64,000 nucleotides of DNA from Dehalococcoidia bacterium (GTDB taxonomy: Bacteria > Chloroflexota > Dehalococcoidia > SM23-28-2 > RBG-16-64-32). Under the pieces are notes generated by a model. That model ran no database searches. It had not been told where the DNA came from and was given only the letters and a program-made list of their open reading frames with translations. The translations under genes were made by a program, and so were the position numbers. Below are positions 37,456-64,000 of the stretch, piece after piece; within the stretch, counting starts at the first letter, position 1; the number at the start of each line of letters is the position of its first letter. The stretch covers positions 192,001 to 256,000 of the forward strand of contig CAXXTF010000002.1 of the NCBI GenBank assembly GCA_963665775.2. Direction: 5' to 3'.

Positions 37456-37457
37456 AT

Positions 37458-39281: not shown

Positions 39282-39305
39282 AACTCACTCTGGCCGGGAA
39301 CGAAG

Positions 39306-43459: not shown

Positions 43460-43571
43460 GGAACACCTCCAAGCCCACTCGTGCCGGCTACATTCGACCG
43501 ACGGTCGCCAGTCGTTAAGTCGGGCGCTATCATGTCAGGCAGGATGGCAGCCACTGCGCGAATCTCTGGTA

Positions 43572-46743: not shown

Positions 46744-47945
46744 GCGAGGACGAGGTCGGGCACCTGTTCAAGGCCCGAATCAACCAGCACTTTGCGAATC
46801 ACGCCGTCCATGCCCTCCTGATCCAAGAGGCAACCATTGCGGGTCAGAGTGAAAGTCCGCGTCCTGCCTCGACGTCGCTTGCCCAAGGGGCGGAAAAAGG
46901 CTTGGAGCTTGGCCTTGTCAACGTCCATCAGGGCTAGAGGGTATCGGTCGGTTTGGGGGCCGGGACTGGTCGCGAAGTACTTGTCGGCTGCGAAGATGAC
47001 CCCAAGCCCGGCAGGGCCACCGACCTGCAGGATTAGTTGTCGACCTCCGTCCCGGTCGCGTAGATGTATCCACTTCACTTCGATGCTCTCGAGGCCAGTG
47101 GATGCGTCGATAACGAACGAGAAGCCCGCTTCCTTCAAGAGATCGAGGCGATAGGCCCTTTCGGCGCCTGGGTCGGCCCCGAGGTCGATACCCAGAATCG
47201 TTCTGGCGAATATCTCTTGCAGGTCCCGGACCTTGTCCTTCGCACCCTGGCAAAACGTTTCGAGCATGTGGCGGTCAGGCGAATAGAAGAACAGGAGATC
47301 CGTCGCGGGTCGGTACTTGCGGCGCACTAGCTTCTCTTCCTCGTACTCAAGCATCGTCTGCCCATAGTCTTCGGGGTACGCGATGTATAGATACCCGGTG
47401 GATCGTTGCAGCCATTCCACATGGCAGTGTTGACCGCGACCCTCCCGCTGAAGTAAATACCCCGTTAGCTGTGCCGACAGGCGCTTCCACCCGGCTTCAC
47501 TCGTATCGGGCTCAGCTTCCGGTATGCCGCGTCTGCGACGCCAATACCGTGCGTTTAGGGTGTCGGCACCTCGAAAGCGGAGGATGTCGGCAAAGAGATC
47601 CTCACGGTTTACAAGGGCCCATATGGCAACGTCGTAGGCACCATCCAGATCAGTAAGCACTCGCGTAAGGTCTTCACCCTGGAAGCGCGCCTCCTCGTAG
47701 AGAAGCCGCATCCCTTCAACGTCCGCAAGTTCGTATACATCTTGGAGGTCTTGGTCTAGGTCTGTCTGCTGGGCGGATGGAAGTCGTTGAAGCGCATCGC
47801 AAAGGGCTTCGACATCCGCATCTTCTTGGTGGAGACAGGGGACGTCTAACAGGGGTCGACGTGCTCCGAAGTACTCGCGCACGAGCGCCCAGGAGATATG
47901 GTGGAGGACCCCTTTTCTAGAGAATGCGTAGCGGCGCTTCGACAT
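46740..47945 (-). CDS. Hypothetical protein
   Basis: 401-aa ORF coupled to 45502..46743. Confidence 0.7.
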   Translation of the reverse strand: MSKRRYAFSRKGVLHHISWALVREYFGARRPLLDVPCLHQEDADVEALCDALQRLPSAQQTDLDQDLQDVYELADVEGMRLLYEEARFQGEDLTRVLTDLDGAYDVAIWALVNREDLFADILRFRGADTLNARYWRRRRGIPEAEPDTSEAGWKRLSAQLTGYLLQREGRGQHCHVEWLQRSTGYLYIAYPEDYGQTMLEYEEEKLVRRKYRPATDLLFFYSPDRHMLETFCQGAKDKVRDLQEIFARTILGIDLGADPGAERAYRLDLLKEAGFSFVIDASTGLESIEVKWIHLRDRDGGRQLILQVGGPAGLGVIFAADKYFATSPGPQTDRYPLALMDVDKAKLQAFFRPLGKRRRGRTRTFTLTRNGCLLDQEGMDGVIRKVLVDSGLEQVPDLVLA

Positions 47946-48059: not shown

Positions 48060-48998
48060 TTAGAGGCCTATTGCCGCCGCCACCTTATCCCAGCCTCGAT
48101 CCTCCTGTCCCTCTAGCCGTCGCAAGTAAACCGTCGTCACTGCGAGCGAGCTGTGATCCAGGAATTGGCTGACGTCCTCCACAGATTCACCGGCGTCTCG
48201 TCGCAGCTTGGCAGCCGAGTGACGGAGGATGTGAACACCAGCGGGCGGGAGGTCGGCCTTCCGGAGATAGTACCGTAGGTTCCCATAGAAGGTTCCGCTG
48301 GTCAGGTCGTGGCCTCCTCTAGAGTGCTGCGAGGGCCACAGCGACTCCTCCGGACTCATCGTGTATAGATTCTTGCCCCAGGCTGCGAGGGATCGCTCGA
48401 TTGCCTCGAATGCTGGTCGTGGAAGTTCTCTCTTCCCCTGTTTGCCACCCTTGCCTCGGTAGGTGTAGAACAAGCCGCCTGTCTGCAAGATGTCCCCTGC
48501 CTTGAGGTTCAGCACCTCGGAGCGGCGGCGACCAGTCAGCGTCAGGGTCAGGATGATTGCCCGGTCGCGGAGGACAGCTGGGGAGTCCGGAATTACCTCC
48601 AGCAGGCGGCGTATCTCCTCGGCGCTCAGTCCTCTCGGAGGGCTGGGTGAGGTTCTTGGCCGCTCGATCTCGTCGCACGGGTTCGAGGATACGATCTTCA
48701 TGCGGATGAGGAAGCGGTAGAACGAGCTCACGCAGGCAAGCCGGGCACCCACTGTGATCGACGAGGGCTTCTTACCGGAAGGACCGATGCCGTGTGCGAA
48801 GCCGAACACCTCCTGGCTCGTGATCTCGTTTGGAGGCTTGCCCATCGAGCCAAAGAAGTGCTGCAGCATTCTGGAGTAGCTCTCTACCGTGCGACTGGAG
48901 CCACTGCGGCGTTCCTTCTCGGCGAGGAAGGCATAGAAGGCCTGCTGCCAGCCCGGCGTCCGCTCGTCGAAGAGTACAATATCGTCAGTCATGCTCAC
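48060..48998 (-). CDS. Tyrosine recombinase (XerC/D-like size)
   Basis: SAM-like N-domain; TGRRRSE (R), GKGGK (K), HILRH, LDH and TTVY (Y) all intact. Confidence 0.95.
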   Translation of the reverse strand: MSMTDDIVLFDERTPGWQQAFYAFLAEKERRSGSSRTVESYSRMLQHFFGSMGKPPNEITSQEVFGFAHGIGPSGKKPSSITVGARLACVSSFYRFLIRMKIVSSNPCDEIERPRTSPSPPRGLSAEEIRRLLEVIPDSPAVLRDRAIILTLTLTGRRRSEVLNLKAGDILQTGGLFYTYRGKGGKQGKRELPRPAFEAIERSLAAWGKNLYTMSPEESLWPSQHSRGGHDLTSGTFYGNLRYYLRKADLPPAGVHILRHSAAKLRRDAGESVEDVSQFLDHSSLAVTTVYLRRLEGQEDRGWDKVAAAIGL

Positions 48999-49035
48999 CT
49001 CTTGTTCTCAAGTCAGTAAGCATGTTCGCTCTGAC

Positions 49036-49059
49036 GCACACGAAGTCAAGTTAGTGTGC
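49036..49059 (-). repeat. Palindromic putative recombination site upstream of the recombinase (spacer CTTGAC on - strand)
   Basis: GCACACGAA GTCAAG TTAGTGTGC, 8/9 arm symmetry. Confidence 0.75.
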
Positions 49060-50156
49060 ACTACTGGTGCGGGTCTGGTGATTTGCGGACGGTGATAGAA
49101 TGCCCCTGGAATGCGCACGGGATCGCTCACGAGGGGAGGACACTCACGAGACGGTTGAACGCCGGCGCTACCAAATGGATCGTCCTTCCTCTGATGCTTA
49201 TGATCGCCGTCGCGGCGGCATCGAGCGGTTGTGCTGGTGGCGGCGATGAGGGCGGCCCTGCAGGTGGGACCCCGACTCTAGCTCCCACAGACAGCCCAAC
49301 GCCCGAATCTACGCTAACGTCCACGCCGACAGCTGCACCGACGATCTCGCCTTTCTCTTCACCGACCGCGACTCTCCAGCCGACATCTACCGCAGTTCCG
49401 CCGCTCGGCTTCACCATCCATTTCATCGACGTCGGCCAGGGCGATGCGACTCTTATTGTCACCGACACCGGTGAGACTTTCTTGGTGGATGGTGGGCGCA
49501 GTAAGACTCGGATCAGGGACCGTCTCGACCGACTTGGAATTGACGAATTGGACGCGATCCTGGTTACCCACCAGGACATAGACCACTTTGCGGGTCTGAT
49601 GGCGGTTCTCGAGGACTATGACATTGAACGGATCTACTGGAACGGCGCGCCAGATGGCTCGACCTTCGACAGCTTCATGACTCTATCCTTGGACGAGGGC
49701 GCGGAGATTTCCGTGATCGGCCGGGGCGACGTGGTCAAGCTGGGAGGAATGGAGATTCAGGTGCTCCACCCAGGTGGGCTAACGGGCGACAAGAACATCG
49801 ACTCCATCGTCCTTCTTGTCCAATGCGGGACAGTTGAGTATCTGCTGATGGGCGATGCGGAGATGGAGTCCGAACAGTCCATGATCGCGGCGGGAATGCT
49901 AGAGGATGTCGAGGTGCTAAAGGTGGGGCACCATGGCTCACGAACCTCAACGTCTGAGGCATTCCTGGATGTTGTCAGCCCCGAATATGCCGTAATCAGC
50001 GCGGGACTAAACAGCCAGTACGGCCATCCCCATCAGGAGACACTGGATGTGCTGAACTCAGCTGGCGTTCAGATCTTCCTTACTGACACGACGGAGGACC
50101 CAGACGGTGTGACGCTGACAACGGACTGCAGCGAGGTCTTGGTCGTTGAACCGTGA
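49056..50156 (+). CDS. ComEC/Rec2-like metallo-beta-lactamase-fold lipoprotein (true start probably about 49155-49194)
   Basis: FIDVGQGDA, THQDIDH, MGDAE, KVGHHGS, YGHPH; signal peptide and P/T linker. Confidence 0.9.
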   Translation: MHYWCGSGDLRTVIECPWNAHGIAHEGRTLTRRLNAGATKWIVLPLMLMIAVAAASSGCAGGGDEGGPAGGTPTLAPTDSPTPESTLTSTPTAAPTISPFSSPTATLQPTSTAVPPLGFTIHFIDVGQGDATLIVTDTGETFLVDGGRSKTRIRDRLDRLGIDELDAILVTHQDIDHFAGLMAVLEDYDIERIYWNGAPDGSTFDSFMTLSLDEGAEISVIGRGDVVKLGGMEIQVLHPGGLTGDKNIDSIVLLVQCGTVEYLLMGDAEMESEQSMIAAGMLEDVEVLKVGHHGSRTSTSEAFLDVVSPEYAVISAGLNSQYGHPHQETLDVLNSAGVQIFLTDTTEDPDGVTLTTDCSEVLVVEP

Positions 50157-50159
50157 ACC

Positions 50160-50181
50160 ACCACTATGGCGCAATAGTGGT
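50160..50181 (-). repeat. Palindromic putative recombination site (spacer TGCGCC on - strand)
   Basis: ACCACTAT GGCGCA ATAGTGGT, perfect 8-bp arms, 3 bp after a stop codon. Confidence 0.8.
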
Positions 50182-50290
50182 CGCCCGTTGAGGTAGTCCC
50201 GAATCCCGCACGGGCGGCTTCCGGATGTAGTGGCTGTACAGCGTTGAAGCGTCGTCGTACTCTCGATCTTTTCTGTTAATCTACATCTCG

Positions 50291-51091
50291 ATGGCTCAGC
50301 AACCCGATTATTCCCTCCTAGACCGTCCGGAGATCATCTCGATCATGTTTCACCCACGACCGGAATGGTCGAGCCCTCCCTCTGGTGCCACCGATCATCT
50401 GGTGCCTGTGGCAGAAGGCGTTGCAGTAGCCTGCCGCTTCTATCGCAACGATAAGGCAGCCCCCTCCATCCTCTACTTCCATGGCAATGGCGAGGTGGTG
50501 AGGGATCACGACTCTATCGCCCCTTTTTATCAGCGGTCGGGTCTCAACCTATTCGTCGCTGACTATCGCGGCTACGGCGCTAGCGGGGGCCTCCCCAACT
50601 TCTCAACGATGCTCTCCGACGCTCGTCGGATCTTCGAGGCCTTTCGGGAGACGCTGGTCACTGAAAGCTGTGATGCTGCTCACTTCGTCATGGGCCGCTC
50701 CCTCGGCGCACTATCGGCTGTGGAGGTGGCGGCCCATTTTGGCCGGCAGCTCCGGGGACTCATCATCGAAAGCGGCGCTGCTGGTACTAGCGGCTGGTCG
50801 CGTTTTGCTCCCTCGGACGGTGACCCCTCCGCATGGCAAGAACTGCAACGGCTGCATCTGGCGAAGGTACAATCCATCACTATTCCGGTTCTGTCCATCC
50901 ATGCTGAGCTAGATGAGCTCATTCCGTTGGCCCAGGCCGTGGAATTGCAAGAGATCATCGGGTCGAGCCAGAAGCAATTGATCGTCATCCCGGCCGCAGG
51001 CCACAACGACATCATGCATGTCGGAATGGAGCAGTACTTCACAGCTCTAAGGAAGTTCATCTTCGGGACTATGCGTGACCAAACCAGATGA
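50291..51091 (+). CDS. Alpha/beta hydrolase
   Basis: FHGNGE, DYRGYG, GRSLG, D and AGHND triad. Confidence 0.92.
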   Translation: MAQQPDYSLLDRPEIISIMFHPRPEWSSPPSGATDHLVPVAEGVAVACRFYRNDKAAPSILYFHGNGEVVRDHDSIAPFYQRSGLNLFVADYRGYGASGGLPNFSTMLSDARRIFEAFRETLVTESCDAAHFVMGRSLGALSAVEVAAHFGRQLRGLIIESGAAGTSGWSRFAPSDGDPSAWQELQRLHLAKVQSITIPVLSIHAELDELIPLAQAVELQEIIGSSQKQLIVIPAAGHNDIMHVGMEQYFTALRKFIFGTMRDQTR

Positions 51092-51105
51092 CGCCATTCC
51101 GAGCG

Positions 51106-51127
51106 CACGCTATGACCTGTGAGTGTC
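51106..51127 (-). repeat. Palindromic putative recombination site (spacer CAGGTC on - strand)
   Basis: CACGCTAT GACCTG TGAGTGTC, 14 bp after a stop codon. Confidence 0.65.
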
Positions 51128-51138
51128 ACCTAGGCCGT

Positions 51139-51174
51139 TCGGAGATGCTGCACGGGACGATGCAGCATCTCCGA
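51139..51174. repeat. Perfect 14-bp inverted repeat
   Basis: TCGGAGATGCTGCA-N8-TGCAGCATCTCCGA. Confidence 0.85.
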
Positions 51175-51199
51175 GAATCACTGCCAAGGAGCCTCGCTC

Positions 51200-51285
51200 A
51201 TGCCTAATAAAGATCTCGAGAAACGCCTCTGGGACGCGGCCGATGAGTTGCTCGCAAACTCGAAGCTGAAGCGACTAAGTACGTT
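51200..51285 (+). pseudogene. hsdM: Type I R-M HsdM N-terminal remnant
   Basis: AAGGAG RBS, DLEKRLWDAADELLANSKLK, then similarity lost. Confidence 0.7.
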
Positions 51286-51507
51286 CTACGGCACAGGCTC
51301 CAGAATGACGACTGGGATCTCGCGCTTGGTGCGCGCCTGTCCGGTTCTGCGCCCTGGCGTGGATAGAAGCAGCCTCTGGATGGGTTCCGGACCGCTGGCG
51401 AAGGTGAAATCCCACATATGACCGTCGGTGCCGTCGCTCTCGAGATAGCGGGTGACGTGGTCCTTGACCCAGTCGCGGAGCAGAGTGGGAACGGAAGATT
51501 CAGGCAT
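51286..51507 (-). pseudogene. Deazaflavin-dependent nitroreductase (DDN-like) with internal deletion
   Basis: DWVKDHVTRYLESDG..LLLSTPGRRTGQART joined directly to KREIPVVILEP. Confidence 0.75.
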
Positions 51508-51533
51508 CCGCTGCTTCCTTTCGGTCGGCGAGG

Positions 51534-54146
51534 CTAAGCCGTGGATCTGTCTGCGAACCACGACGCCAGCTGGGTCTGGTTCGTCTCAATCCACTTCACG
51601 TTCAGCCGGATGCGCTCCAGCGATTGCCAGACGGTCCTCTTCGCGGCGGGGACTGGGTGAGCCTCGAAGAACTCCTCGACCTCCTGAGCACGCTTCAATG
51701 TAGCGAAATCACCCGTGATGGCAACCAATCGCATGATTGCGAAGCCACCGCGGGCGTACCGTCGATCTAGCTCCGCCCAATTGTCCTTAGCCCACTGCCA
51801 CGTCAGATCGCGTCCGTGCCGGTTCGCGGCGGCCGACACGACCACCATCGGGGTATCCTGCGAGCGCACTTCGGGCGAGAGGGAGCGTTCCAGTGTCTCC
51901 TGGATCAACTCCGGTTGCCGGAAACGGGTGAGCGCCCCCAGGAGCCGCATGCGCTCCTCATGCAGGTTCGCCCGCTTCTCCAAATCCCATAGCCTATCGT
52001 AGGTGGAGCGGTCTCCCTGTTCGGCCGCCAGGTTGTATACCGTGCCCCGAATGTCCGGATGCAGGGAGCCGAAATCTCCGGTCAGCCGTGCGAAGCGCTT
52101 TTCGGCTTCAACCAGGATGTCACGGTCGCCGTAGGAGCCCGCTTGCCCTAGCACCGTGCTCCGTAGCAGGGAGTCCAGGTGCAGCTCTCCCGGCCGGGCA
52201 TCCCAGCCCACGCGCTGGATAATCCCGCTAAAGAGCGACCGGGCGAAGGCGTTAAACCGGGACAGGAATGGGGCATCGAGCAACAACGCCTCCAGTGAGC
52301 GCAGATTGCCCGATAGGTCGCTCCATACCGAGACGTCGTTCTCGTCCGTGTATGCCTCAATCAGCGAGAGATAGATTATGGCGGGAATGAAGCCGGCCCG
52401 CATGAGGGCGAAGGCATCGTTCTGGAGCCCGAGACGATCGGCGGCCGGCAGTTCCAGCGTCTTCACGGCCGAGCCCAGCCTATCCCACTCAGCCGGCGAA
52501 TAGTTCACGCGGAAGAAGCCGGTCTCCCCGGCGTTCACCTTGATCCAGTCCAGAGGATGTGAAGGCGGGTCGTTGCGCAGGCTCACCGATGCCCGCGGCC
52601 CGTCCATCAGCTGGGCGGCTGTCTCCGCTGAACGCGCCGTGATGACGCTGATCGGGACCTGCCAGGTAGTCTGGTCTTCGTCATCCTCGCTGAGGAGATG
52701 ATCATAGAGGAAGCGGCGCTGGGACAGGTTCAGACGCACCTCGGAGTCGCCTCGCTCGGCTTCGACTTGAAGCAGGGGGTAACCAGTCTGCTTGACCCAT
52801 GAGTCCATTATGGCGGTGACCGGCCTGGCAGAGGCTGCCTCCAGGGCGGCCCAGAGGTGCTCAGTCCGGGCGTTGGCATACTGGTGGGCGGCGAGGTAGG
52901 CGCGAAGTCCGTCGCGGAACGTTTCAGCACCCAGCATCTCCTCCAGCATGTGCAGGATGGCAGCCCCTTTTCGGTAGCTGATGGCATCGAACAGCTCTCG
53001 GATCTCGGCCGGATTTCGCACCTTGGCTTCGATGGGATGGGAGGCCCGAAGGCCGTCCAGGTTCAGCCCGACGTTGGTGTCCTCGTAGATGAACTGGGTC
53101 CACATGTGCCAATCGCGGAACAGATGATCGACGGCCTTGGTGCCCATCCAGGAGGCGAAGCTCTCATTTAGCCACAGGTCATCCCACCACTCCATGGTAA
53201 CCAGATCGCCGAACCACATATGCGCCATCTCGTGCGCTACCACTTCGGCGATGCGCTGGCGGGTGTTGGCGGCCGAGTTCGCGGGATCATACAGGAGAGC
53301 CGTCTCCCGATAGGTAATCGCGCCCCAGTTCTCCATCGCGCCAGAGGCGAAGTCCGGGATAGCGATGTGGTCTAGCTTGGACAGCGGGTAGACGATGCCG
53401 AAGTAGTCGTTGAGGTAGGCGAGCAGTCCGACTGAGGTCTCCAGGGCGAACCGTCCCTGCTCCTCACTGCCGCGGGTTGCCCATACCCTTACCACAGTGC
53501 CGTTCGCTGCTGTCGACTCCACCGAGGCGAAGTCCCCGACGATGAAGGCCAGAAGATAGGTTGACATCTTGGGCGTCTGAGCGAAGCGGACCGCCTTCAT
53601 GCCGCTTGGCAGGGGGGTCTCCCCCTCCACATTCGTATTCGAGATTGCGGCCAGATCGGCTGGGACGATCAGAGTCACGTCAAAGATCGCCTTGATGTCT
53701 GGCTCATCCCAGCACGGGAACGCGCGACGGGCATCCGTCGCCTCGAACTGAGTCGTCGCTATGAGGCGCTGCTGGCCCTGGCCGTCCGCATACTGACTCC
53801 GGTAAAACCCCCGGAGCTGGTCGTTGAGCGTGCCGCTGAACTGGATACTGAGCTTGGCGTCTCCCCTGGGAATCGTGTCGCTAAAGGAGAAGCTGACGGT
53901 CTCGTGGGTTTCGTCCAGGTCGATGCTTGTGGCTGACTGCGTTACGCCTCCTGTGGGGACGATCTGCGCGCCGGCGATCTGGAGCTCCGCCGCGTTGATC
54001 GTGATCTGAGTGGTGGGGGCTGCCACCTCTATGTCTATGATCTCCTCGCCCTTGAAGGAGAACCCTTTCAGATCCACAGTGAGAGTGAGGCTGTATCTTG
54101 TGGGGCGTGCGTCTGAGGGCAGCCGAAAGGGAGAGGGTGTGGCCAT
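51534..54146 (-). CDS. M1 family zinc aminopeptidase (puromycin-sensitive/PepN-like)
   Basis: TQFEATDARRAFPCWDEP, GAMENWG, HEMAH..WLNES, ERAP1-like C-terminus. Confidence 0.96.
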   Translation of the reverse strand: MATPSPFRLPSDARPTRYSLTLTVDLKGFSFKGEEIIDIEVAAPTTQITINAAELQIAGAQIVPTGGVTQSATSIDLDETHETVSFSFSDTIPRGDAKLSIQFSGTLNDQLRGFYRSQYADGQGQQRLIATTQFEATDARRAFPCWDEPDIKAIFDVTLIVPADLAAISNTNVEGETPLPSGMKAVRFAQTPKMSTYLLAFIVGDFASVESTAANGTVVRVWATRGSEEQGRFALETSVGLLAYLNDYFGIVYPLSKLDHIAIPDFASGAMENWGAITYRETALLYDPANSAANTRQRIAEVVAHEMAHMWFGDLVTMEWWDDLWLNESFASWMGTKAVDHLFRDWHMWTQFIYEDTNVGLNLDGLRASHPIEAKVRNPAEIRELFDAISYRKGAAILHMLEEMLGAETFRDGLRAYLAAHQYANARTEHLWAALEAASARPVTAIMDSWVKQTGYPLLQVEAERGDSEVRLNLSQRRFLYDHLLSEDDEDQTTWQVPISVITARSAETAAQLMDGPRASVSLRNDPPSHPLDWIKVNAGETGFFRVNYSPAEWDRLGSAVKTLELPAADRLGLQNDAFALMRAGFIPAIIYLSLIEAYTDENDVSVWSDLSGNLRSLEALLLDAPFLSRFNAFARSLFSGIIQRVGWDARPGELHLDSLLRSTVLGQAGSYGDRDILVEAEKRFARLTGDFGSLHPDIRGTVYNLAAEQGDRSTYDRLWDLEKRANLHEERMRLLGALTRFRQPELIQETLERSLSPEVRSQDTPMVVVSAAANRHGRDLTWQWAKDNWAELDRRYARGGFAIMRLVAITGDFATLKRAQEVEEFFEAHPVPAAKRTVWQSLERIRLNVKWIETNQTQLASWFADRSTA

Positions 54147-54502
54147 AGGTTATCTTCCCTTAACTATACCGGTCATGCGAGAGGTAGTAGCCCGGGCCGC
54201 CGTGCGCGGACCCACCGCCTCGTGGGCTTTGTGCATCCTTGCGGCCCTCTCGGGTGCCTATGTTTCTAGCAGGCAGATTATATAGCGCCCCTCCGAAGCT
54301 GAGTCAATGGCGTGTCCCGACTCCTGCCACCGGTACATGTTGTACGTCGTGGGGCAGCTATTCCCTATCCAAAGTCAGGAATCCCTCTTAGCTCCAACGC
54401 AGCACCTGCCATGGCTGAAGCCAAAGATATGCGAAAGTGAGGCGGATCAAGTGGGTATAGACTATCCCGATTCCTGCCTTCATCGCTCGGTCGCGTACGA
54501 TG

Positions 54503-54520
54503 CACTATCCACACATAGTG
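54503..54520 (+). repeat. Palindromic putative recombination site (spacer CCACAC)
   Basis: CACTAT CCACAC ATAGTG. Confidence 0.8.
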
Positions 54521-54582
54521 TTGCTTCGGCGGTGAGCTGACCAGACTCGTCGGCGGCCTCGGAGGGTTTCTGGCTCTGAGCC

Positions 54583-55452
54583 TTAGCCGTCCGCTAAGAA
54601 CGCCTCCACTACCTCCAAGAAGCGGTCCAGCTGTTCGTGGTGGACCCAGTGACCAGCGCCCTCGATAACTGCCGAGCGATAGAAGGGGAGTGCGCGGGCT
54701 CTTGCCTGCCACTCCGGATGAGCGGACCAGCTCTCGCCTCCAGCTACGAGCAGCACGGGCGCTCGAATGTTGGCCCAAAGCTCCTCGCCCCCGTCAGGGT
54801 GCAGACCGCCTGCGACGAGGTAGTTATCAAACTTCCACGAGTAGGTGCCGTCTTCGTTTTTCCGGATGCCATGAAGGGCCAAATGGCGAGCGATACCGGG
54901 GCTGACTCGCGGGTTCACCTCAATTATTCGGCGAGTAGCTTCCTCTACGGAAACATGCCTGCGCAATCGTCGTCGCTCCCCGTGGCGCCTGCTGTCGATC
55001 CAATGCCGCATTCGTGCAGGGGGAGCCATGCCGTCCGGGCTGTGAGCGACCACGGGAGGGCCGAGTCCCTCGACCGCTATCACTTTCGACACTCTCTCCG
55101 GAAATACTCCGGCATACTGCAGGGCGATATTTCCGCCGCGGGAGTAACCCATGATGGCAAGTGAACCCTCAATCGTTTCCGCTAGAGTCGCAATGTCCAA
55201 GACAAAATCAGGTGTCCCGTAGGAGCCATCTGTAACCCACTCACTATCGCCATGACCCCTAAGATCGGGAGCGTAGATCGTATAGCGGTTCTTGAGCGTC
55301 CGCGCCACGAAATCCCAGCTTCTGCAGTGCTCCCTGCTGCCATGGATAAGCAGGAGCGGAGGGCCGCCGCTTTCACGCCATACCACGTAGTGCAGCCGGA
55401 GCCGCTGAGATTCATAGAAGTGCGACTCGGGCTCATCGAGGCCGAAGCGCAT
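54583..55452 (-). CDS. Alpha/beta hydrolase
   Basis: LIHG, DLRGHGDS, GYSRG, AGHWVHH. Confidence 0.92.
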   Translation of the reverse strand: MRFGLDEPESHFYESQRLRLHYVVWRESGGPPLLLIHGSREHCRSWDFVARTLKNRYTIYAPDLRGHGDSEWVTDGSYGTPDFVLDIATLAETIEGSLAIMGYSRGGNIALQYAGVFPERVSKVIAVEGLGPPVVAHSPDGMAPPARMRHWIDSRRHGERRRLRRHVSVEEATRRIIEVNPRVSPGIARHLALHGIRKNEDGTYSWKFDNYLVAGGLHPDGGEELWANIRAPVLLVAGGESWSAHPEWQARARALPFYRSAVIEGAGHWVHHEQLDRFLEVVEAFLADG

Positions 55453-55526
55453 GGAATGTCACCCTAATCTTCATGTCATCATATTGATGGAAACGTCTGG
55501 GGTGGAGAATAACATATCTGGGGGGA

Positions 55527-55544
55527 GGCTATGCAGACATAGTG
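55527..55544 (+). repeat. Palindromic putative recombination site (spacer GCAGAC)
   Basis: GGCTAT GCAGAC ATAGTG. Confidence 0.7.
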
Positions 55545-55744
55545 GTCCCGGCTAACAGGCGGCGGCTCAGGAAAACGGTCCGTCTTTCCAGGGACAGCGA
55601 CACACTATCCGGTTGAAATGTAGCTGGGGCCTCCATGCCTAAACGATTGGCGGCCACTAAGACTAGATGCCGACTATGGGCGATTTCCGAACGTAGGGAG
55701 CGTGATCGCTACCGCGCCTCACGCTTCCCCCGAAGCGCGCCACA

Positions 55745-56950
55745 CTACGCCACCAGTCCCCGGTCCATCAACTCTCTGATCTGTCCCTCTGTATAGCCGA
55801 TCTCCGCCAACACCCCGGCAGTGTGCTGGCCTACCTCGGGGGCCGGAGTGGGAGTCGGGAAGGCCTGGCCAGCGACTTTTATCGGAGTGGCCACCATCTT
55901 TAGCTGGCCGATGCCGGGCCGTCGCTGGTCTACGATCATCTCTCTGGCCTTGAAGAGCTCAGTGTTTTCGACCTCGTCCCGCGGATAGTACGGTGCCCCG
56001 GCGATGTTGTAGTCGACAAAGATCTCCGTCCACTCTTCCCTCGTCCTCGTGCGAAACACTTTGACCAGTTCTTCGCGCAGCTCACCATCGGCGGAGGCCA
56101 GCTCCATGCGGCTCGCGCTCCAATCACCCCGACTGGCTAGGTCCGGCCGCCCCACGACCTCACAGAAATGCTCCCAGAAGTGCTGCTCGATGGACTGAAG
56201 CAGGATCCACCCGTCGTCTTTCGTCTGGTAGTATCCGGCCTTGGCCGATCGTCCTGCCTTCGAAGCGGGCGAGCCGAGATCCGCGCCGTTCAGGACCGGG
56301 AGCATCTCCAGCCCAAGGGCCATGAGGGTTGAGTCAGCGCAGGAGATGTCGAGGTAGGCGCCCTCCCCGGCGTCCCGGGCCTGGATGAGCGCTGCACATA
56401 TGCCGAGCGCCGCCATCCAGCCACCGTAGATACCGCCGCGGGGATACGAGGAGGTCGGGCGGTCCTGGACGGCACCATCGTCCCCGGAGGAGGGCGGAGG
56501 GGCCATGCCGGTAACGGCATCGAAGCCGCCGCCATGGCTGGCCAGCTGGGCGAAGGGTCCGGTCTGGCCGAATCCGGTTACCGAGCAGTAGACGATCCTG
56601 GGATTGACGAGGCTAATCCGGTCATAGCCCAGACCGAGCTTGGCCAGTGCGTCAGGCCTAGCGCTTTCCACGAATACATCGCAGCTGCTGGCAAGATCGT
56701 AGACGACCTGCCGCCCCTCATCCGTCCGGAAATCGACGGCGATATCGCGCTTGTTCCGGTTGAAGCAGAGGAACGAACGCATCATTCCGGCCAGCTCGCC
56801 GGTGCCGCTTCCGGTTCTCATGTAATCGCCGATCGTGGGCTCCTCAACCTTGATCACGTCGGCGCCCATATCGGCGAGAAGCATCGTCGCTAGGGGACCG
56901 GGCAACAGTCGCGAGAGATCAAGAACCTTGATCCGATTGAGCAGACGCAC
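55745..56950 (-). CDS. Family III (CaiB/BaiF, AMACR-like) CoA-transferase
   Basis: LDLSRLLPGP, LADMGADVIKVE, NRNKR, TGFGQTGP, APEVGQHT. Confidence 0.9.
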   Translation of the reverse strand: MRLLNRIKVLDLSRLLPGPLATMLLADMGADVIKVEEPTIGDYMRTGSGTGELAGMMRSFLCFNRNKRDIAVDFRTDEGRQVVYDLASSCDVFVESARPDALAKLGLGYDRISLVNPRIVYCSVTGFGQTGPFAQLASHGGGFDAVTGMAPPPSSGDDGAVQDRPTSSYPRGGIYGGWMAALGICAALIQARDAGEGAYLDISCADSTLMALGLEMLPVLNGADLGSPASKAGRSAKAGYYQTKDDGWILLQSIEQHFWEHFCEVVGRPDLASRGDWSASRMELASADGELREELVKVFRTRTREEWTEIFVDYNIAGAPYYPRDEVENTELFKAREMIVDQRRPGIGQLKMVATPIKVAGQAFPTPTPAPEVGQHTAGVLAEIGYTEGQIRELMDRGLVA

Positions 56951-57169
56951 AGGTGACCTCCTTGGTTCATCACGGCAAGGCAGAGTGCAGCGAAATCGTA
57001 CCGGCGCCTCGGTGGCAGGCCAACGGACGTCGATAGCGCAGCCCCCCGGCGTCCGGCGCGATGACCATGCGGACGCACCGCACGTTCGAGCCGATGCGCC
57101 GAGAATATGCTAGGTATGGTGACCTGTCAACCGAAGCCTGCTTGGAGCGGCAGAGCCTGGCTGTTACCA

Positions 57170-57187
57170 CACGATGAAGTCATAGTG
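57170..57187 (+). repeat. Palindromic putative recombination site (spacer GAAGTC)
   Basis: CACGAT GAAGTC ATAGTG. Confidence 0.75.
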
Positions 57188-57276
57188 CGGGCCTCGGCCC
57201 CGCCATACTAATTCAGCGTTGAGGATCGCTATCAAGCCATGTATGATGGCCTCGACACTCGAACAAGGCACTGGCC

Positions 57277-58014
57277 ATGAATGCCCGCAGTCCGCTGACC
57301 GCAGCTGTTTTAGCGCTAATACTTATTGTTATTGGGGCTTGTGGGGGTAGCGAAAGGGCAGCTACGATCCTGCCAACGGCAACGCCGGTCGAAACCAGCA
57401 CGGCTCCAGCTGAGCCAACAGCCAACCCCAAGACCTCTAGCCCCGCTGCAACTGCTGTCGAAGGTGATGAGCTTGTTGAGCGGCTACCGGAGGCACTCCT
57501 AGCTTTGGAGGATATGCCGGCAGGGTGGACAGTGAGGGTGATAGTCGACGATGAAGAGGACGACGGCTCGACCATTTGCGGCGTGGCCTCCGGGCAGTTC
57601 TCCAGAGACGCATTCGCACGTTTCACTGCCGATTTCCAGAAAGCTGAGTTCGGGCCTTTCTTGGATCAAGTGGTCGATTACTTTCCAGAGGGCGAGGCGG
57701 AGCGGGTCATGGCGGAGTTCAGTGATGCCTTTCGCTCGTGTACTGAATGGACTGTGATCGAAGAGGATGGGACGGAAACCACCTGGCGGCTCGGTCCCCT
57801 ATCGTTTCCCAAGATCGGTGATGAGACGTTCGCATTCCGAATGTCCACGGTGACGTTCCTCGGCGCTGTGGAATTGGATTTCATTACTTGGCGACGGCAG
57901 GACATTGTTGTCGTGATAGCGCATACTAGCATCGGATTTGAGGGCATCGATGGAGAACAAACCGAGGCATTCGTGCGGCGCGCAGACGAGAAGTTGAGAG
58001 CTTTCTTGGATTAG
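57277..58014 (+). CDS. Lipoprotein (PknH-like extracellular sensor domain)
   Basis: Lipobox IGAC, LL.LEDMPAGW, two Cys, P.IGDET. Confidence 0.7.
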   Translation: MNARSPLTAAVLALILIVIGACGGSERAATILPTATPVETSTAPAEPTANPKTSSPAATAVEGDELVERLPEALLALEDMPAGWTVRVIVDDEEDDGSTICGVASGQFSRDAFARFTADFQKAEFGPFLDQVVDYFPEGEAERVMAEFSDAFRSCTEWTVIEEDGTETTWRLGPLSFPKIGDETFAFRMSTVTFLGAVELDFITWRRQDIVVVIAHTSIGFEGIDGEQTEAFVRRADEKLRAFLD

Positions 58015-58103
58015 GCGCCGCAGCGTTCCTCACCTCGTCTGGACATCAGCTTTCCCTCTGTTGCGGCCCCGCCGCCGTGTCGCAGCATGGAGTTTGAATG
58101 GGC

Positions 58104-58127
58104 CCCCACGATCGACACATCGTGGGG
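58104..58127 (+). repeat. Palindromic putative recombination site (spacer CGACAC)
   Basis: CCCCACGAT CGACAC ATCGTGGGG, perfect 9-bp arms, between convergent genes. Confidence 0.8.
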
Positions 58128-58205
58128 TTACCACACGGCGCGAGCCAGGCCGGATGACATCCCTCGGCCGGCCACGCCAGGTCTGCGGCGTTACGCGCTT
58201 GCTGA

Positions 58206-59360
58206 TTATTGCCACAGTGCTAGGAGCGTCTGTTCCAGCTCCACCTTTTCCCGCCGATAACGCTTGGAGGGGGGCTCCAGCGTTACTCTGGGGCCCGGCA
58301 TGCCGTAGAAGTTCCCCGAGGCATATGCGGCCATACCGTCGCCCACCTCTACATAGCAGAAGCCATGGCCCGTGAACCGGGTTGCGGTGCTCTCTCCTGC
58401 GATCTCTGCCGCTACGTTCGCCGCCACCACGCGGGCCTCCTCGTCCGCAAACACTCCGGCCTTGGGAAGGTACATGCCGATCGGCAATCTGACAGCCGTC
58501 ACGTCGCCGATGGCGAAGACCCCAGAGTAGCGCGTCTGGAGGGTTGTCGGGTCAACGGGGACCCAGCCTGAAGCGTCGACGAGCCCGCTCTCTCGCACCG
58601 CCGCCGGCGCGATGTGTGGCGGCACGCCCACCAGCAGGTCGAAGGAGGTGTCGTCTAACTCGAATAGAATCCTTCTGGAGGCGGGATCTATCTTCATCGG
58701 AATCTGCTCCCAGTGAAGCTCAATGTCCCGCTCTTCAAGCATCTCGATGAGGGCGGTTCCGAGATTGGCGCCGGCTACGAGCATCGGCTGGTCCTCGGGG
58801 GTGTAGAGGGCGATCTCTGTCCGCTGCCGGACACCCCGGTGGCGAAGGAGCGATTCAATGAGGAAGGCCGCTTCATAGGGCGCGGACGGGCAAGAGAAGG
58901 GGGTTCTGCTTACGAGGACGACGATGCGACCGCCGTTGAACTCGTTGAGCGTTCGCTGTATCTGCAGGGCGCCATCGCTCTCGTATAAATTGAGCGCCGA
59001 TTCCGCGAAGCCTGGAACCGCCTGGGGATTCGTCTCGGTCCCCAGGGCCAGGATGATATAGTCGCCCTCCAGGGTGCCGGCTGTGGTCTGCACGGTCTTG
59101 GCAGCCGGGTCTATCGCCTGAATCTCCGCCTGAACCACTTCGATGCCGGTGCTCGCCAACCGTGATAGCTCGCGTTCTCCGTCCCTCGGATCCTTCCTCT
59201 CCCCTGTCATGACCCATAGGTTGGACATGCAGAGCGAGAAGGCGTGCCTCCTTTCGATCACCACTATGCGGTGCTCGGCCGGCGATAGCCTTCGCAGGTG
59301 GCTGGCCGCCGTCAGGCCACCGATGCCGCCGCCCAAGACTAGTATCGTTTTCCTGCTCAT
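58206..59360 (-). CDS. FAD-dependent oxidoreductase (sulfide:quinone oxidoreductase-like)
   Basis: LGGGIGG, CPSAPYE, FAIGD, PKAGVFA, GFCYVE; start re-called to ATG 59360. Confidence 0.88.
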   Translation of the reverse strand: MSRKTILVLGGGIGGLTAASHLRRLSPAEHRIVVIERRHAFSLCMSNLWVMTGERKDPRDGERELSRLASTGIEVVQAEIQAIDPAAKTVQTTAGTLEGDYIILALGTETNPQAVPGFAESALNLYESDGALQIQRTLNEFNGGRIVVLVSRTPFSCPSAPYEAAFLIESLLRHRGVRQRTEIALYTPEDQPMLVAGANLGTALIEMLEERDIELHWEQIPMKIDPASRRILFELDDTSFDLLVGVPPHIAPAAVRESGLVDASGWVPVDPTTLQTRYSGVFAIGDVTAVRLPIGMYLPKAGVFADEEARVVAANVAAEIAGESTATRFTGHGFCYVEVGDGMAAYASGNFYGMPGPRVTLEPPSKRYRREKVELEQTLLALWQ

Positions 59361-59370
59361 TGCCGCCTCC

Positions 59371-59694
59371 CTAGCCGAAGGTGAGGACGCGGTCCGCCTC
59401 CTCCGTAAGTCGCACCAGGTCATCCATAGTGGACATGGGACACACGGCGCTTGCGTCCATCTGACGCAGGCGCAGGCACGTGCCACAGCTCAGGGCGACG
59501 CCCCCCAGCTCGTCGAAGCGCAGCAGCAGCCTTTGGACATCCATGCGTTCGTCCCCGATGCCCTCTATCTCGACGGCCGGTCCCAGGAGGAAGACGTTCG
59601 CCTCATGGCCGCGAGACAGGGCGGCCGAACCGAAGCGAAGGGCGTTCCACACCGTCTCAGTTTCGGTCGTATTGATCACCAGCAGGTACTTCAT
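59371..59694 (-). CDS. DsrE-family protein
   Basis: WNALRF, VFLLGPAVE, CGTC..R, ADRVLTF. Confidence 0.85.
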   Translation of the reverse strand: MKYLLVINTTETETVWNALRFGSAALSRGHEANVFLLGPAVEIEGIGDERMDVQRLLLRFDELGGVALSCGTCLRLRQMDASAVCPMSTMDDLVRLTEEADRVLTFG

Positions 59695-59895
59695 GGCACC
59701 TCTCCCTTCGCGCTGGCGGACCAGCCCCTGCAATAGAGCAAATCGACCTTCATGTTCACCTCCATAAGTTTAGGTATACCGCTACCATGATATCCCTATG
59801 GCAAGGCTGCTGTGACCAATCCGTGACGTGTCGCTTGACGAGCCGAGGGGCGATAGCCTAATTTACGCATCGACTTCTCAACTAATTTGGGGGGT

Positions 59896-60084
59896 ATGTC
59901 TCTTATGGGCAAGATGGTCGAATGCAACAAGGTGAACCCAGCCAGCGGCTGCAGCGACGTCGTTCGCGGTGAGACTGAGGAGGAGCTCCTGAAGAACGCG
60001 GCGGAGCACGCGAAGGAGCACGGGCTCGTAGAGGTAACGCCAGAGCTTATGGAGAAGATGAAGGCCAACATCGAGAAAGAGTAA
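59896..60084 (+). CDS. DUF1059 small metal-binding protein
   Basis: C...GC...RGETEEEL....EHA..HG. Confidence 0.8.
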   Translation: MSLMGKMVECNKVNPASGCSDVVRGETEEELLKNAAEHAKEHGLVEVTPELMEKMKANIEKE

Positions 60085-60220
60085 CACCCGCGAGCCGCTC
60101 GGGCTCCCGAAAATCCCAACGCTATCAAACCTATGTTAGCGCCCGCCTGGTATGTCACGGCAGGCTGGTTAAGTCAGCCACCACGGCCTGGCTAATTTCA
60201 ACGATAAAGAGGGGATGGCT

Positions 60221-60238
60221 TACCATTCAGCCATAGCG
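60221..60238 (+). repeat. Palindromic putative recombination site (spacer TCAGCC)
   Basis: TACCAT TCAGCC ATAGCG. Confidence 0.75.
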
Positions 60239-60376
60239 TGCGGTCCGGCTGACACTGCTTACAGTGAGCATGCTGCGCGAGACAGAACGAGGGAGCCTGT
60301 GACCTTTGACGGGTGCCTCAGGCAGGACTAGACTTGCCTCACGGCAGGGCCGCGCCGAGAAATTAGGAGGTACTCA

Positions 60377-60592
60377 ATGGCTCATCGGTTTGAGCATAAA
60401 GGATTTCAAGTCGAGATAGATCCTGACCGTGAGGGAGGACCGCGGATGAGGATTGCGGATAGCGAGATTCCCGTCCGACGGATTGGCAACCAGTTTATCA
60501 CCCCCTTACTTCCATATGTGAAAGCGGAGGACCTGACTGATTTAGCGAGGGCAGTAGTTGAGCAGTCCCGAGACTTCGAGACTCATGAGTGA
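60377..60592 (+). CDS. Tyrosinase caddie/copper chaperone-like protein (MelC1-like)
   Basis: HKGFQVEI..MRIADSEIPV..Y..DLARAVVE pattern; directly upstream of the tyrosinase. Confidence 0.6.
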   Translation: MAHRFEHKGFQVEIDPDREGGPRMRIADSEIPVRRIGNQFITPLLPYVKAEDLTDLARAVVEQSRDFETHE

Positions 60593-60614
60593 CAGGCAGT
60601 AGTCCACGGAGGAG

Positions 60615-61529
60615 ATGAAGATGGTGATCCGAAGAAACGTGAGACACTCTTCCGATTCCGAAAAGCGAGAGTTTATTGCTGCCCTGCTAAGTCTCAAAGT
60701 TGAAGTCGGACCTGATGGGATTAGTACTTATGATCGGCACACACGCTGGCATATGGAAGCCATGGCCAAGGCGACTGATCCCGCGAGGCCTTGGTGGGAG
60801 CAGAACCAACCGCATCGAGGTCCAGCGTTTCTACCATGGCACCGGATGTTTCTTCGCTCGGTAGAGTGGGAACTCCAACGCGTTTCTGCAAACCCTAATC
60901 TAGGCATCCCTTATTGGGACTGGACTCAAGATGCGGCTAATCCAGCAAGTTCTCCTATTTGGGACCCCAGCCTCCTGGGTGGCAACGGCGACATATCGAA
61001 TAACGATGTCGTGACGACAGGCCCTCTCTCGAATCCGCTAACCTGGACAACTGTTCAACCACAGATCTCGCAACAGGGAGACCTGCTCGGCTTTCAGCCA
61101 GGAGGAGGTCTTCGCCGCAGATTTACCAATTCTATCGGTGTCCCCACGCAGGACGAAGTTGACCAGGTGCTCAATATGAGCGTCTATGATACGGACCCAT
61201 TGGATTCAACATCCACAGGCAGCTTCCGCAACACACTGGAGGGTTGGGTAGGGCCAGGCCTTCACAACCAAGTGCATGCATTCGTTGGTGGAGACATGAT
61301 GGCAGGCACTTCCCCCAACGATCCCGTCTTCTATCTGCACCATTGCCAGGTAGACCGAATTTGGGCCATCTGGCAGCGACGCTTTCCGAATAATCCCTAC
61401 ATTCCAGAAATTGGCGCCTCTGCTGGTCACAACCTTCGTGATCCCATGTTCCCATGGGATGGCCAGGCAACCAGCAAGCTGGTGACTCCTGAGGGGATGT
61501 TGAATCTGGGGAGTGTCATATACGCATAG
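60615..61529 (+). CDS. Tyrosinase (type 3 copper, MelC2-like)
   Basis: WH..HRGPAFLPWHR (CuA), IPYWDW, LHNQVH..SPNDPVFYLHH (CuB). Confidence 0.95.
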   Translation: MKMVIRRNVRHSSDSEKREFIAALLSLKVEVGPDGISTYDRHTRWHMEAMAKATDPARPWWEQNQPHRGPAFLPWHRMFLRSVEWELQRVSANPNLGIPYWDWTQDAANPASSPIWDPSLLGGNGDISNNDVVTTGPLSNPLTWTTVQPQISQQGDLLGFQPGGGLRRRFTNSIGVPTQDEVDQVLNMSVYDTDPLDSTSTGSFRNTLEGWVGPGLHNQVHAFVGGDMMAGTSPNDPVFYLHHCQVDRIWAIWQRRFPNNPYIPEIGASAGHNLRDPMFPWDGQATSKLVTPEGMLNLGSVIYA

Positions 61530-61676
61530 CATACGGTTAATAGGGGCGCCCACGATGGCTGGCAACCTGACCTGGTTGGACACGGACGCAATCTTGGCAC
61601 GCCTCACCGGGCCCCACCACCTTAGCCCGTTGTCGGCCGAAGAAGAACCATGTTCCCTCCCGCACAGCGCCCGGGA

Positions 61677-61698
61677 GACGCTATTAACTCATAGTGTC
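61677..61698 (+). repeat. Palindromic putative recombination site (spacer TAACTC)
   Basis: GACGCTAT TAACTC ATAGTGTC. Confidence 0.8.
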
Positions 61699-61976
61699 GC
61701 CGAGTCATCGGCGATCGACGGGGCCTCACGTACCATAGGGTCATGGGCGATTGCGCGTTCTGTGGCCGCAGCCCCGCTCCAGACTTTGCCGTGACCGCAT
61801 GCGCGAGCGATCCGGAAGACGGTTCTTCGCACTGGCGGCGGGAGGTCTTGCCGGTCTGCCCGCGCTGCCACAGAGCGCTGGGACAAGCGGGGCCTGAGGG
61901 GCGGAAGCTGAAGACGACCGGTGAGCGCTGGTGGCTCGGGCACGGGCGCGGAAAGATAGAGTCGAAAGTAGCGCCA
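61683..61976 (+). repeat. About 300-bp imperfect direct repeat, copy 2
   Basis: Collinear with 36938..37231. Confidence 0.9.
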
Positions 61977-61985
61977 GAGGGTTAG
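61743..61985 (+). CDS. Small CxxC..CxxC zinc-binding protein, copy 2
   Basis: Near-identical protein to 36998..37243. Confidence 0.7.
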   Translation: MGDCAFCGRSPAPDFAVTACASDPEDGSSHWRREVLPVCPRCHRALGQAGPEGRKLKTTGERWWLGHGRGKIESKVAPEG

Positions 61986-62698: not shown

Positions 62699-62727
62699 TG
62701 ACCTGCCCCCCTAAACGCTACCACAGG

Positions 62728-63591
62728 CTATGTTAGTGTGGCCATCGCCGTAGTCTCCAGGGATGGCGCGGTGGAGCCCGGCCATGGCACGATCGCTTGC
62801 GGTGCTGGCGGCCGGTAGCCGAGAGCGCTATGCGGGCGCACCTCGTTGTAGTTCCGTCGCCACCGCTCGCAGAGGACCTGTGCTTCCAGCACCGTGTCGA
62901 ACACCTCCCCATTCAATAGTTCATCACGTAGCTTCCCATTGAACGACTCGATGTAGCCGTTCTCCCAGGGGCTCCCGGGCTCGATATACAGAGTCTGCAC
63001 GCCTACCCGCTCTAGCCAGGTCCGGAGCGCACGTGCCGTGAACTCTGGCCCGTTGTCCGAGCGCAGGTAGCGAGGCGTCCCGCGCTCGACGAAGAGCTGG
63101 GCCAGCTCTGCCAGCACGTCATCACTGGTGATCTGCCTCGCCACCTGGATAGCCAGGCACTCCCTTGTGAACTCGTCCAGCACCGTCAAGAGCCGCAGGG
63201 GACGGCCGTCGCTGGTGCGGGTAAACACGAAGTCGTAGCTCCAGACGTGGTTGGGCTCAGTCGGCCTGAGCCTAACGCAGGAGCCATCGGTCAGCCATAG
63301 CCGCCTCCGCTTCGGCTGCTTCGCCGGCACCTTCAGCCCTTCCCGCCGCCAGAGCCGCTCTACCCGCTTGTGGTTCACCCGAAAACCCTCCTCTCGCAGC
63401 AGGGCGGTCACCCGTCGGTAACCGTAGCGCCCGTACTCGGTCGCTAGCTCCACCATCCGCCTCAGCAGCCTCCCTTCATCGTCGGGAGGAGAACCCCACC
63501 GCCGCTGCGTCGATCGCTCCTGCCCCAGGGCCTGGCAGGCCCGGCGCTCCGAGATGACCGCGTGGCCCAACGCATTCCGCACCCAGGCCAC
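62728..63591 (-). CDS. IS3 transposase OrfB
   Basis: YGYRR, WSYDF, SDNGPEF, ESFNG, RPHSALG. Confidence 0.95.
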   Translation of the reverse strand: MAWVRNALGHAVISERRACQALGQERSTQRRWGSPPDDEGRLLRRMVELATEYGRYGYRRVTALLREEGFRVNHKRVERLWRREGLKVPAKQPKRRRLWLTDGSCVRLRPTEPNHVWSYDFVFTRTSDGRPLRLLTVLDEFTRECLAIQVARQITSDDVLAELAQLFVERGTPRYLRSDNGPEFTARALRTWLERVGVQTLYIEPGSPWENGYIESFNGKLRDELLNGEVFDTVLEAQVLCERWRRNYNEVRPHSALGYRPPAPQAIVPWPGSTAPSLETTAMATLT

Positions 63592-63614
63592 CGCCTGTCG
63601 TCTCTTGGCCGGGC

Positions 63615-63893: not shown

Positions 63894-64000
63894 TCCTTCT
63901 GCCCCCTTTCTCTGGTCCAGAACCCCTGATTACTAACATTGGGCCTGGACTCGTTTTCGGGGGCAAGGTCATGGGTATGACGACACGTTCGTGTCTTTCG

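Follow-up and report, generated by a model that had tools for sequence, protein, structure and literature searches.

The locus examined here raises the question of how an array of small gene units came to lie beside a single tyrosine recombinase gene, and why that array changes direction partway along its length. It occupies positions 49036-61698 of a 64,000-nucleotide stretch of a Dehalococcoidia bacterium genome (contig CAXXTF010000002.1 of assembly GCA_963665775.2, positions 192,001 to 256,000), referred to below as the window. A preliminary description of the window had noted nine short sites separating the units, had described the units as cassettes that, unlike typical integron cassettes, keep upstream DNA, and had explained the change of direction as an inversion or a fusion of two arrays. 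We consider it likely that the interval is the cargo region of a mobile unit, in which nine core-type recombination sites with shared arms and distinct centres bound a series of slots that can be swapped between elements. Related elements probably swap modules slot by slot.

The sites were first spotted by reading the intergenic DNA; eight copies aligned in register yielded a weight matrix, and an arms-only version of it was used for scanning. Within 49000-61700 the scan returns exactly nine imperfect 24-bp palindromes and no additional match of at least 12 bits. All nine are intergenic relative to the long open reading frames (ORFs) and stand where the preliminary description had placed them, including both end coordinates. 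Each consists of arms close to ACACTAT and ATAGTGT that flank a 6-bp centre with G as its first base, such that the conserved part measures 24 bp (arms of 7-9 bp plus the centre). Leave-one-out scores for the eight clearest sites range from 10.3 to 22.4 bits. Within the window, 4.24 +/- 2.09 copies of the heptamer CACTATG would be expected and 11 are present, a count reached in 0 of 100 shuffles, and an 18-nt degenerate pattern produces 22+22 matches across the whole genome versus 1+1 for the reversed control. A generic repeat finder missed the sites, which are too short and degenerate for it.

Inspection of the nine centres reveals that all are different. On the (+) strand lie s1 (49036-49059, GTCAAG), which precedes the recombinase start codon by 37 bp, s2 (50159-50182, GGCGCA) and s3 (51105-51128, GACCTG), the last (+) site, whose right arm is degenerate. 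On the (-) strand follow s4 (54500-54523, GTGTGG), the first (-) site, s5 (55524-55547, GTCTGC), s6 (57167-57190, GACTTC), s7 (58104-58127, GTGTCG), s8 (60218-60241, GGCTGA) and s9 (61676-61699, GAGTTA), which separates the array from the next backbone copy. No centre class occurs twice in the array, so it lacks the inverted copies of one site that characterize a shufflon or invertible segment. The strand of each site is the reading in which its centre starts with G; GTCTGC and GACTTC start with G on both strands, and were assigned a direction from their class sequence and from how they line up with other arrays. With centres read in this manner, the split into three sites facing one way and six the other holds, the switch falling between GACCTG and the next site. 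Site direction stays constant whatever direction the neighbouring genes have.

The matrix scan locates dozens more sites in the 2.35-Mb genome, clustered in few regions and classed by centre as GTGTCG (11 copies, the commonest class), GAGTTA and GGCTGA (8 each), GACTTC (5), GTGTGG (4), GTCTGC (2, plus 4 read on the other strand), and GTCAAG, GGCGCA and GACCTG (3 each). All three GTCAAG copies adjoin the recombinase gene or a remnant of it, with homology on the recombinase side only. The order of the centres recurs, inverted, at C2:973183-981395 (GAGTTA, GGCTGA, GTGTCG, GACTTC, GTCCGC, GTGTGG), where C1 and C2 denote contigs of this genome; it recurs again at C1:767458-782057 and upstream in the window itself (26800, 32296 and 36931). 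Among neighbouring site pairs within 12 kb, 28 of 34 are collinear with the array in both order and direction, or 20 of 26 once the array's own eight pairs are removed. By comparison, 2000 label shuffles produced a mean of 7.6 collinear pairs and a maximum of 15.

Comparison of flanking DNA places breaks in homology at the sites themselves. In 166 same-class site pairs, flank homology is one-sided in 12 and two-sided in 0; the one-sided pairs have 74-100 of 100 bases alike on the homologous flank versus 23-33 on the other. The change falls inside the 24-bp site, where each arm goes with its own flank and the centre is common. At C2:980365, for example, the left flank is shared with C2:353956, and the right arm and flank with s5. 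The left flank and left arm of s4 and C2:981395 are alike, with divergence from the first base past the centre and a different right arm, and the right flank of s8 is 91% identical to that of C2:462029. Alignments by blastn behave in the same way: homology to a second recombinase copy on C1 stops 6 bp past s1, and homology to the neighbouring backbone copy begins at s9, which resembles the site at 36931 on the backbone side only. The preliminary description had proposed asking whether alignments end at the sites, and one entire module answers this directly, since the hydrolase module (54503-55544) aligns with C2:981415-980368 at 96.66% identity and the alignment stops at s4 and at s5. Homologous blocks that span the sites in relatives, named there as the opposite outcome, were absent from the matches listed in a search of 64 further genomes from the order: 45 gave matches (up to four candidates being scored per genome), and none of those listed overlaps a site.

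The arrangement extends well beyond this genome. Recombinase orthologs (59-78% identity) were found in 6 of 40 relatives searched, at 25 public loci in metagenome-assembled genomes (MAGs) labelled Dehalococcoidia, Chloroflexota or Chloroflexia, plus one Thermoleophilia MAG, and at 80 metagenome loci, 45 of which, hand-picked and mostly with upstream DNA, were scanned for sites, the other 35 being left out. The same centres appear in the same order and polarity beside orthologous recombinases in seven genomes (G015, G029, G031 with three arrays, G033, G040 with two arrays, L034 and L036), and also on metagenome contigs. The GGCGCA centre of s2 also follows the recombinase gene in four of these genomes (G015, G029, G031 and G040) and at metagenome loci, and GACCTG(+) lies upstream of the recombinase at 13 of the 25 genome loci. 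A site is positioned 27-84 bp upstream of the recombinase start in L023, L030, L032, L035, L036 and L041 and 38-58 bp upstream in L048, L049, L050, L053, L054, L057, L065, L075, L076 and L113; in the four closest scanned relatives (81-94% identity) the centre 38-45 bp upstream is GTCAAG. Strand hits to the site pattern, counted as forward plus reverse such that a near-palindromic site can count twice, number 6-44 in seven genomes with an ortholog versus 0-4 in eight relatives without. The cargo differs between elements, with almost no cargo DNA shared with 46 loci.

The polarity switch belongs to this conserved arrangement. GGCGCA(+), GACCTG(+) and then (-) sites of the GTGTGG or GTGGGG type succeed one another in 10 arrays of the 7 other genomes, with differing cargo, and a second array on C1 changes polarity in the same manner. 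Where metagenome loci extend 8 kb or more upstream (12 loci), (+) sites are followed by (-) GTGGGG in 6, only (+) sites are present in 5, and 1 has no sites. The slot that holds the switch is usually the largest, at 0.56-10.4 kb in the arrays listed. The switch is thus old, conserved and part of the design.

The array is one portion of a unit of ~24.7 kb that lies between direct GAGTTA repeats at 36931 and 61676 and comprises a 12-kb backbone and eight cargo slots. Same-centre direct repeats surround backbone and array repeatedly (36931/61676, 32296/60218 and 26800/58104), and a relative, G031, has two GGGAAC sites 24.3 kb apart with the recombinase between them. The same backbone lies rightward of s9 and of the 36931 site, the right-hand copy being decayed and interrupted by an insertion sequence (IS). 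Portions of further units are thus arranged in tandem with this one.

The gene adjoining s1 (48060-48998, - strand) encodes a Xer-like tyrosine recombinase of 312 aa (Pfam Phage_integrase, E 5e-19) with a complete R-K-H-R-H-Y catalytic set: R158, K in GKGGK 182-186, H256, R259, H282 and Y291. Xer-type simple tyrosine recombinases are two-domain proteins of ~300 aa without an arm-binding domain, and the SAM-like N-terminal and Phage_integrase domains found by Pfam agree with that type. The closest solved structure is XerD (1a0p, E 1.4e-16), with an alignment over residues 83-292 that contains small gaps only and no IntI-type insertion; alignment with XerA is likewise free of large insertions, and that with IntI4 (2a3v) is confined to residues 31-205. 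The protein scores 110 bits with the NCBIfam XerD model (cut-off 330) and also 110 bits with the archaeal XerA model. Lying under the XerC, XerD and XerA equivalog cut-offs, it is a relative of these enzymes and an ortholog of none.

Tyrosine recombinases perform strand exchange only between sites with matching centres. Near-palindromic arms common to all sites could let one recombinase bind every one of them, and because centres must match, nine different centres would block exchange within the array and confine it to equivalent sites on separate elements, in register. In a first step, crossover at one centre would join two elements into a cointegrate or tandem, a state seen in the window. 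In a second, crossover at another centre would separate the elements again, with the intervening slots exchanged. We infer that the adjacent recombinase is the acting enzyme, that it requires matching centres and that exchange proceeds in these two steps. A parallel exists in engineered cassette exchange, where one enzyme acts on heterospecific spacers and a pair of crossovers replaces the DNA that lies between two different sites. The present system would share with it a single enzyme and several mutually incompatible spacers; the engineered version is artificial and uses two site variants, whereas this one would be natural and comprise nine to ten variants in fixed order.

Several points weigh against slot-by-slot swapping by the adjacent enzyme. 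In the run data, which consist of contigs only, neither a circular junction nor a module swap was found. Breakpoints are resolved to the site only, as the shared centre masks the exact crossover. The canonical order was derived from the array under study, and 6 of the 34 neighbouring pairs are not collinear with it. Contigs from three sequencing runs leave and rejoin the window at 51057 and 51166, which are 48 and 38 bp away from s3 and not within it, and the model does not account for the entry of new genes into a slot. As to the enzyme, several arrays in the genome have no copy of this recombinase nearby (C2:973183-981395 among them), and some others contain tyrosine recombinases that are more distant (26% identity). 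Enzyme and sites are parts of one element, and their co-occurrence in genomes therefore does not identify the enzyme.

These last observations would also be expected if the sites are real recombination sites on which some other enzyme acts, either the host chromosome-dimer resolvase, as is assumed for the pdif sites of Acinetobacter, or the distant tyrosine recombinases (which adjoin sites at C2:341137-342801, 359617-360378 and 1438576-1439352), leaving the 312-aa enzyme only to integrate or resolve the element at the proximal site. We regard this as unlikely, though it is the alternative that fares best. An enzyme encoded in one array can act in trans on others, and many loci from several genomes have a site 27-84 bp ahead of the recombinase start. 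The 0-4 strand hits in the eight relatives without an ortholog argue, moreover, against a general presence in the family of dif-like sites of this form. The possibility that the palindromes are instead regulatory or boundary sequences (operators, terminators or REP-like repeats), with the mosaic arising by homologous recombination within them, is in our judgement improbable. They are intergenic and near-palindromic and could form short hairpins, all of which would suit such a role. Their layout of inverted arms around an asymmetric 6-bp centre is, however, that of a tyrosine-recombinase core site, and neither an operator nor a terminator requires discrete conserved centre classes with common arms; the sites hold one direction whatever that of neighbouring genes, and 24 bases are short for efficient homologous exchange. 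Least of all do we credit an integron-like array whose halves were joined by a local inversion or fusion near 51285, as first proposed from the broken methylase and DDN genes that meet tail to tail at ~51286-51290 in the switch slot, because the same polarity change is conserved in the other arrays described above whatever their cargo, the recombinase falls short of the IntI model and the sites do not resemble attC.

The locus does share with integrons a tyrosine recombinase gene read away from an adjoining array of small gene units, an attI-like site just upstream of that gene, and variable cargo. An integron in the strict sense is nevertheless excluded by the IntI family models, with which the recombinase reaches 52 bits (TIGR02249, cut-off 265) and 32 bits (PRK15417, cut-off 435), and by its lack of the extra segment that IntI carries in the catalytic domain. 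The attC sites of integrons are imperfect palindromes of ~60-140 bp that recombine as folded single strands; compared by length and layout, the sites here are 24-bp core sites of double-strand type. Each site here is unlike its neighbours, so single cassettes are not simply excisable, and the units point either way. What the preliminary description said of the units themselves was borne out: they are modules of 1-3 genes, bounded by recombination-type sites that adjoin the recombinase, and unlike typical integron cassettes they retain their own upstream DNA, 70-350 bp of it.

The closest known system is that of the dif modules of Acinetobacter, carried on Rep_3/OrfX plasmids and bounded by pdif sites. 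A published account (PMC13141974) models their movement via a cointegrate, the scheme adopted above, gives the sites distinct XerC and XerD arms, and states that successive sites must alternate direction, yielding C and D modules. Host XerC/XerD are assumed there to act, and the modules are described as unique to Acinetobacter plasmids (PMC13141974). Sites in the present array likewise have a 6-bp centre between two arms, but the two arms mirror each other and carry the same variants, such that two arm types are indistinguishable. Direction does not alternate: three (+) sites precede six (-) sites with one conserved change, and other arrays contain similar runs. The element encodes its own single Xer-like enzyme, its centres form a fixed ordered series, and it resides in MAG chromosomes of Dehalococcoidia and other Chloroflexota with a backbone of primase-like gene, ParB-methylase and serine recombinase, as opposed to Acinetobacter Rep_3/OrfX plasmids. 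Our literature search found no account of such a system outside Acinetobacter. Recombinase-in-trio (RIT) elements, defined by three adjacent tyrosine recombinase genes, differ as well, since the 401-aa and 413-aa neighbours of the recombinase yield no Phage_integrase match nor any other from Pfam or NCBIfam.

A broader proposal can be put forward only tentatively, and we hold it to be rather less probable than its converse. It envisages a family of Chloroflexota elements in which ~10 mutually incompatible centre variants in fixed order serve as a shared addressing standard, so that recombination occurs in register only and a slot-addressed pool of modules is open across genera. The convergence of polarities opposite the backbone in the circular form might then mark a direction-dependent step, for example strand exchange coupled to episome replication from a backbone origin. 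If the two-step mechanism holds, the shuffling of modules at Xer-type sites, whose only descriptions to date come from Acinetobacter plasmids, would prove to be older and more widespread as a strategy, and it would explain trade in metabolic genes among poorly known soil and sediment Chloroflexota. One enzyme working on an ordered series of incompatible sites, kept across genera, would be an unusual design, and a natural orthogonal site set for a single small recombinase would be useful for multi-site genome engineering.

Contigs assembled from an independent run repeat the arrangement over 48252-53163, across the switch, and over 53136-61788, from s4 to s9. Parts of runs that contigs do not cover went unused (for example 60100-61611 in X14, X15 and X18 and 57076-59091 in X18). 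In the three runs mentioned above, from three studies, contigs depart from the window at 51057 and rejoin it at 51166 or 51203, around s3, and one continues into ~2 kb of other DNA; these departures point to a strain variant at a slot boundary. Candidate long-range joints at 49539-61939 and 53870-61088 have sides of 21 nt and were deemed spurious.

The cargo itself is diverse. Slot 1 (49056-50156, +) holds a metallo-beta-lactamase-fold protein (Pfam Lactamase_B, E 7e-19), previously called ComEC-like, and slot 2 (50291-51091, +) an alpha/beta hydrolase (Hydrolase_4, E 2e-18). Slot 3, which contains the polarity switch, consists of an M1 aminopeptidase of 870 aa (51534-54146, -; Peptidase_M1, E 1e-83; ERAP1_C, E 5e-91) together with two gene remnants. 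One is an N-terminal remnant, ~25 aa, of an HsdM-like N6 DNA methylase (51200-51289, +). It was recognized by weak tblastn matches: for its first 30 aa, all 8 plasmid matches listed are DNA methylase N-termini, with 56.5-85% identity (at least 65% in 7 of 8) across ~20 aa and a best E of only 1e-2. The other is a truncated piece of a DDN-like F420H2-dependent quinone reductase (51286-51561, -), whose PF04075 match (E 0.0036) lies below the cut-off and spans profile positions 1-40 of 130, and whose DNA is 82-84% identical to G023 and G002. These remnants show only that the cargo there has also been remodelled by other means.

Beyond the switch, slot 4 (54583-55452, -) contributes a second alpha/beta hydrolase (Abhydrolase_6, E 5e-21) and slot 5 (55745-56950, -) a family III CoA-transferase of the CaiB family (CoA_transf_3, E 2e-92). 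Slot 6 (57277-58014, +) encodes a putative lipoprotein of no known family, with a signal-like N-terminus ending in GAC and no significant Pfam match. Slot 7 (58206-60084) combines an FAD oxidoreductase of sulfide-dehydrogenase type (-; Pyr_redox_2, E 9e-21; FCSD_central), DsrE (-; E 1e-8) and DUF1059 (+; E 4e-13). Slot 8 (60377-61529, +) pairs a 71-aa small ORF with a tyrosinase (Tyrosinase, E 2e-44). Pfam thus confirms most of the gene content first assigned, namely the hydrolases, aminopeptidase, CaiB, oxidoreductase (of sulfide-dehydrogenase type), DsrE, DUF1059 and tyrosinase, with the metallo-beta-lactamase-fold protein now named as such; the DDN and methylase remnants are weakly recognized, and the melC1 label given to the 71-aa ORF is unconfirmed, no Pfam family matching it even at a relaxed threshold. 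That relaxed search also returned nothing for the methylase remnant, the lipoprotein or a 219-aa ORF at 62042. All eight slots fall below the genome-mean G+C of 63.2% (55.3-62.9%), the tyrosinase slot (60242-61675) being the lowest of the array at 55.3%. A second copy of slot 7 at C2:1022346-1022957 is 97% identical to window 58341-58575 plus 59633-60014 and lacks ~1.06 kb; the 3' part of its oxidoreductase gene is fused straight to the DsrE start by a deletion within the module, not at a site. A candidate joint at 58569-59632 is explained by this paralogous copy.

The backbone (36931-45188, -) comprises the GAGTTA site at 36931, a Cys-rich small gene, unknown genes, a ParB-N6/N4 methylase, an 804-aa primase-like protein and a large serine recombinase, as assigned with Pfam and PHROGs. 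Between the serine and tyrosine recombinases lie two overlapping genes for proteins of 413 and 401 aa (45502-46743 and 46740-47945, -), which have no Pfam or NCBIfam family and whose protein-atlas neighbours fall in unnamed clusters, roughly half of which are viral. The 401-aa protein matches phrog_37634 (function unknown) with E 2e-23. The pair is kept at the same place in L021, L022, L027 and L031 at 28-37% identity and could be an accessory or defence pair. The Cys-rich gene (80 aa; 61743-61985, +) recurs beside GAGTTA sites, with tblastn copies at window 36998-37231 (90%) and on C1. The IS in the right-hand backbone copy (window 62699-63971, ~1273 bp) encodes an rve-type, IS3-like transposase; at least 11 full-length copies with 98-99.7% identity, plus fragments, occur elsewhere in the genome. 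Upstream, the neighbouring array (window 26800-36954) places GTGTCG (26800) and GGCTGA (32296) sites on the - strand over 26800-32319, in the order and direction of s7 and s8. Its slots are larger and their cargo is the size of operons: GTGTCG and GGCTGA enclose a molybdopterin oxidoreductase and an HTH-DnaJ protein, and GGCTGA and GAGTTA an ABC peptide-type transporter (binding protein and two permeases).

Relatives of the recombinase and isolated site-like sequences were also encountered elsewhere. The plasmid collection holds as best relative a protein merely 36% identical, on a Candidatus Chlorohelix plasmid, and the viral collection one contig with a close recombinase and no array upstream. 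The two orthologs in the Thermoleophilia MAG (L037 and L038; Actinomycetota), at 66-68% identity, have few canonical sites within 10 kb and suggest transfer across phyla. Distant tyrosine recombinases (~26% identity) at C2:1438327-1439352 and C2:340419-342801 directly adjoin sites of the same family in other arrays, and could represent a second enzyme lineage on the same site standard. Analysis of the GC skew of the genome located neither a terminus nor a dif site. An isolated 24-bp perfect palindrome at C1:629760-629783, remote from the arrays, combines the family arms with GACGTC, a centre that is itself palindromic and unique to this site; it may be a dif-like site of the chromosome, its context being uninformative. 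Finally, a site-like sequence with centre TGCCGG (first base not G) at window 39363-39386 lies inside the 3' end of the ParB-methylase gene (39306-40550); it is found inside the coding region in 4 of 4 near-full copies of that gene and is either a working site or a mere part of the gene.

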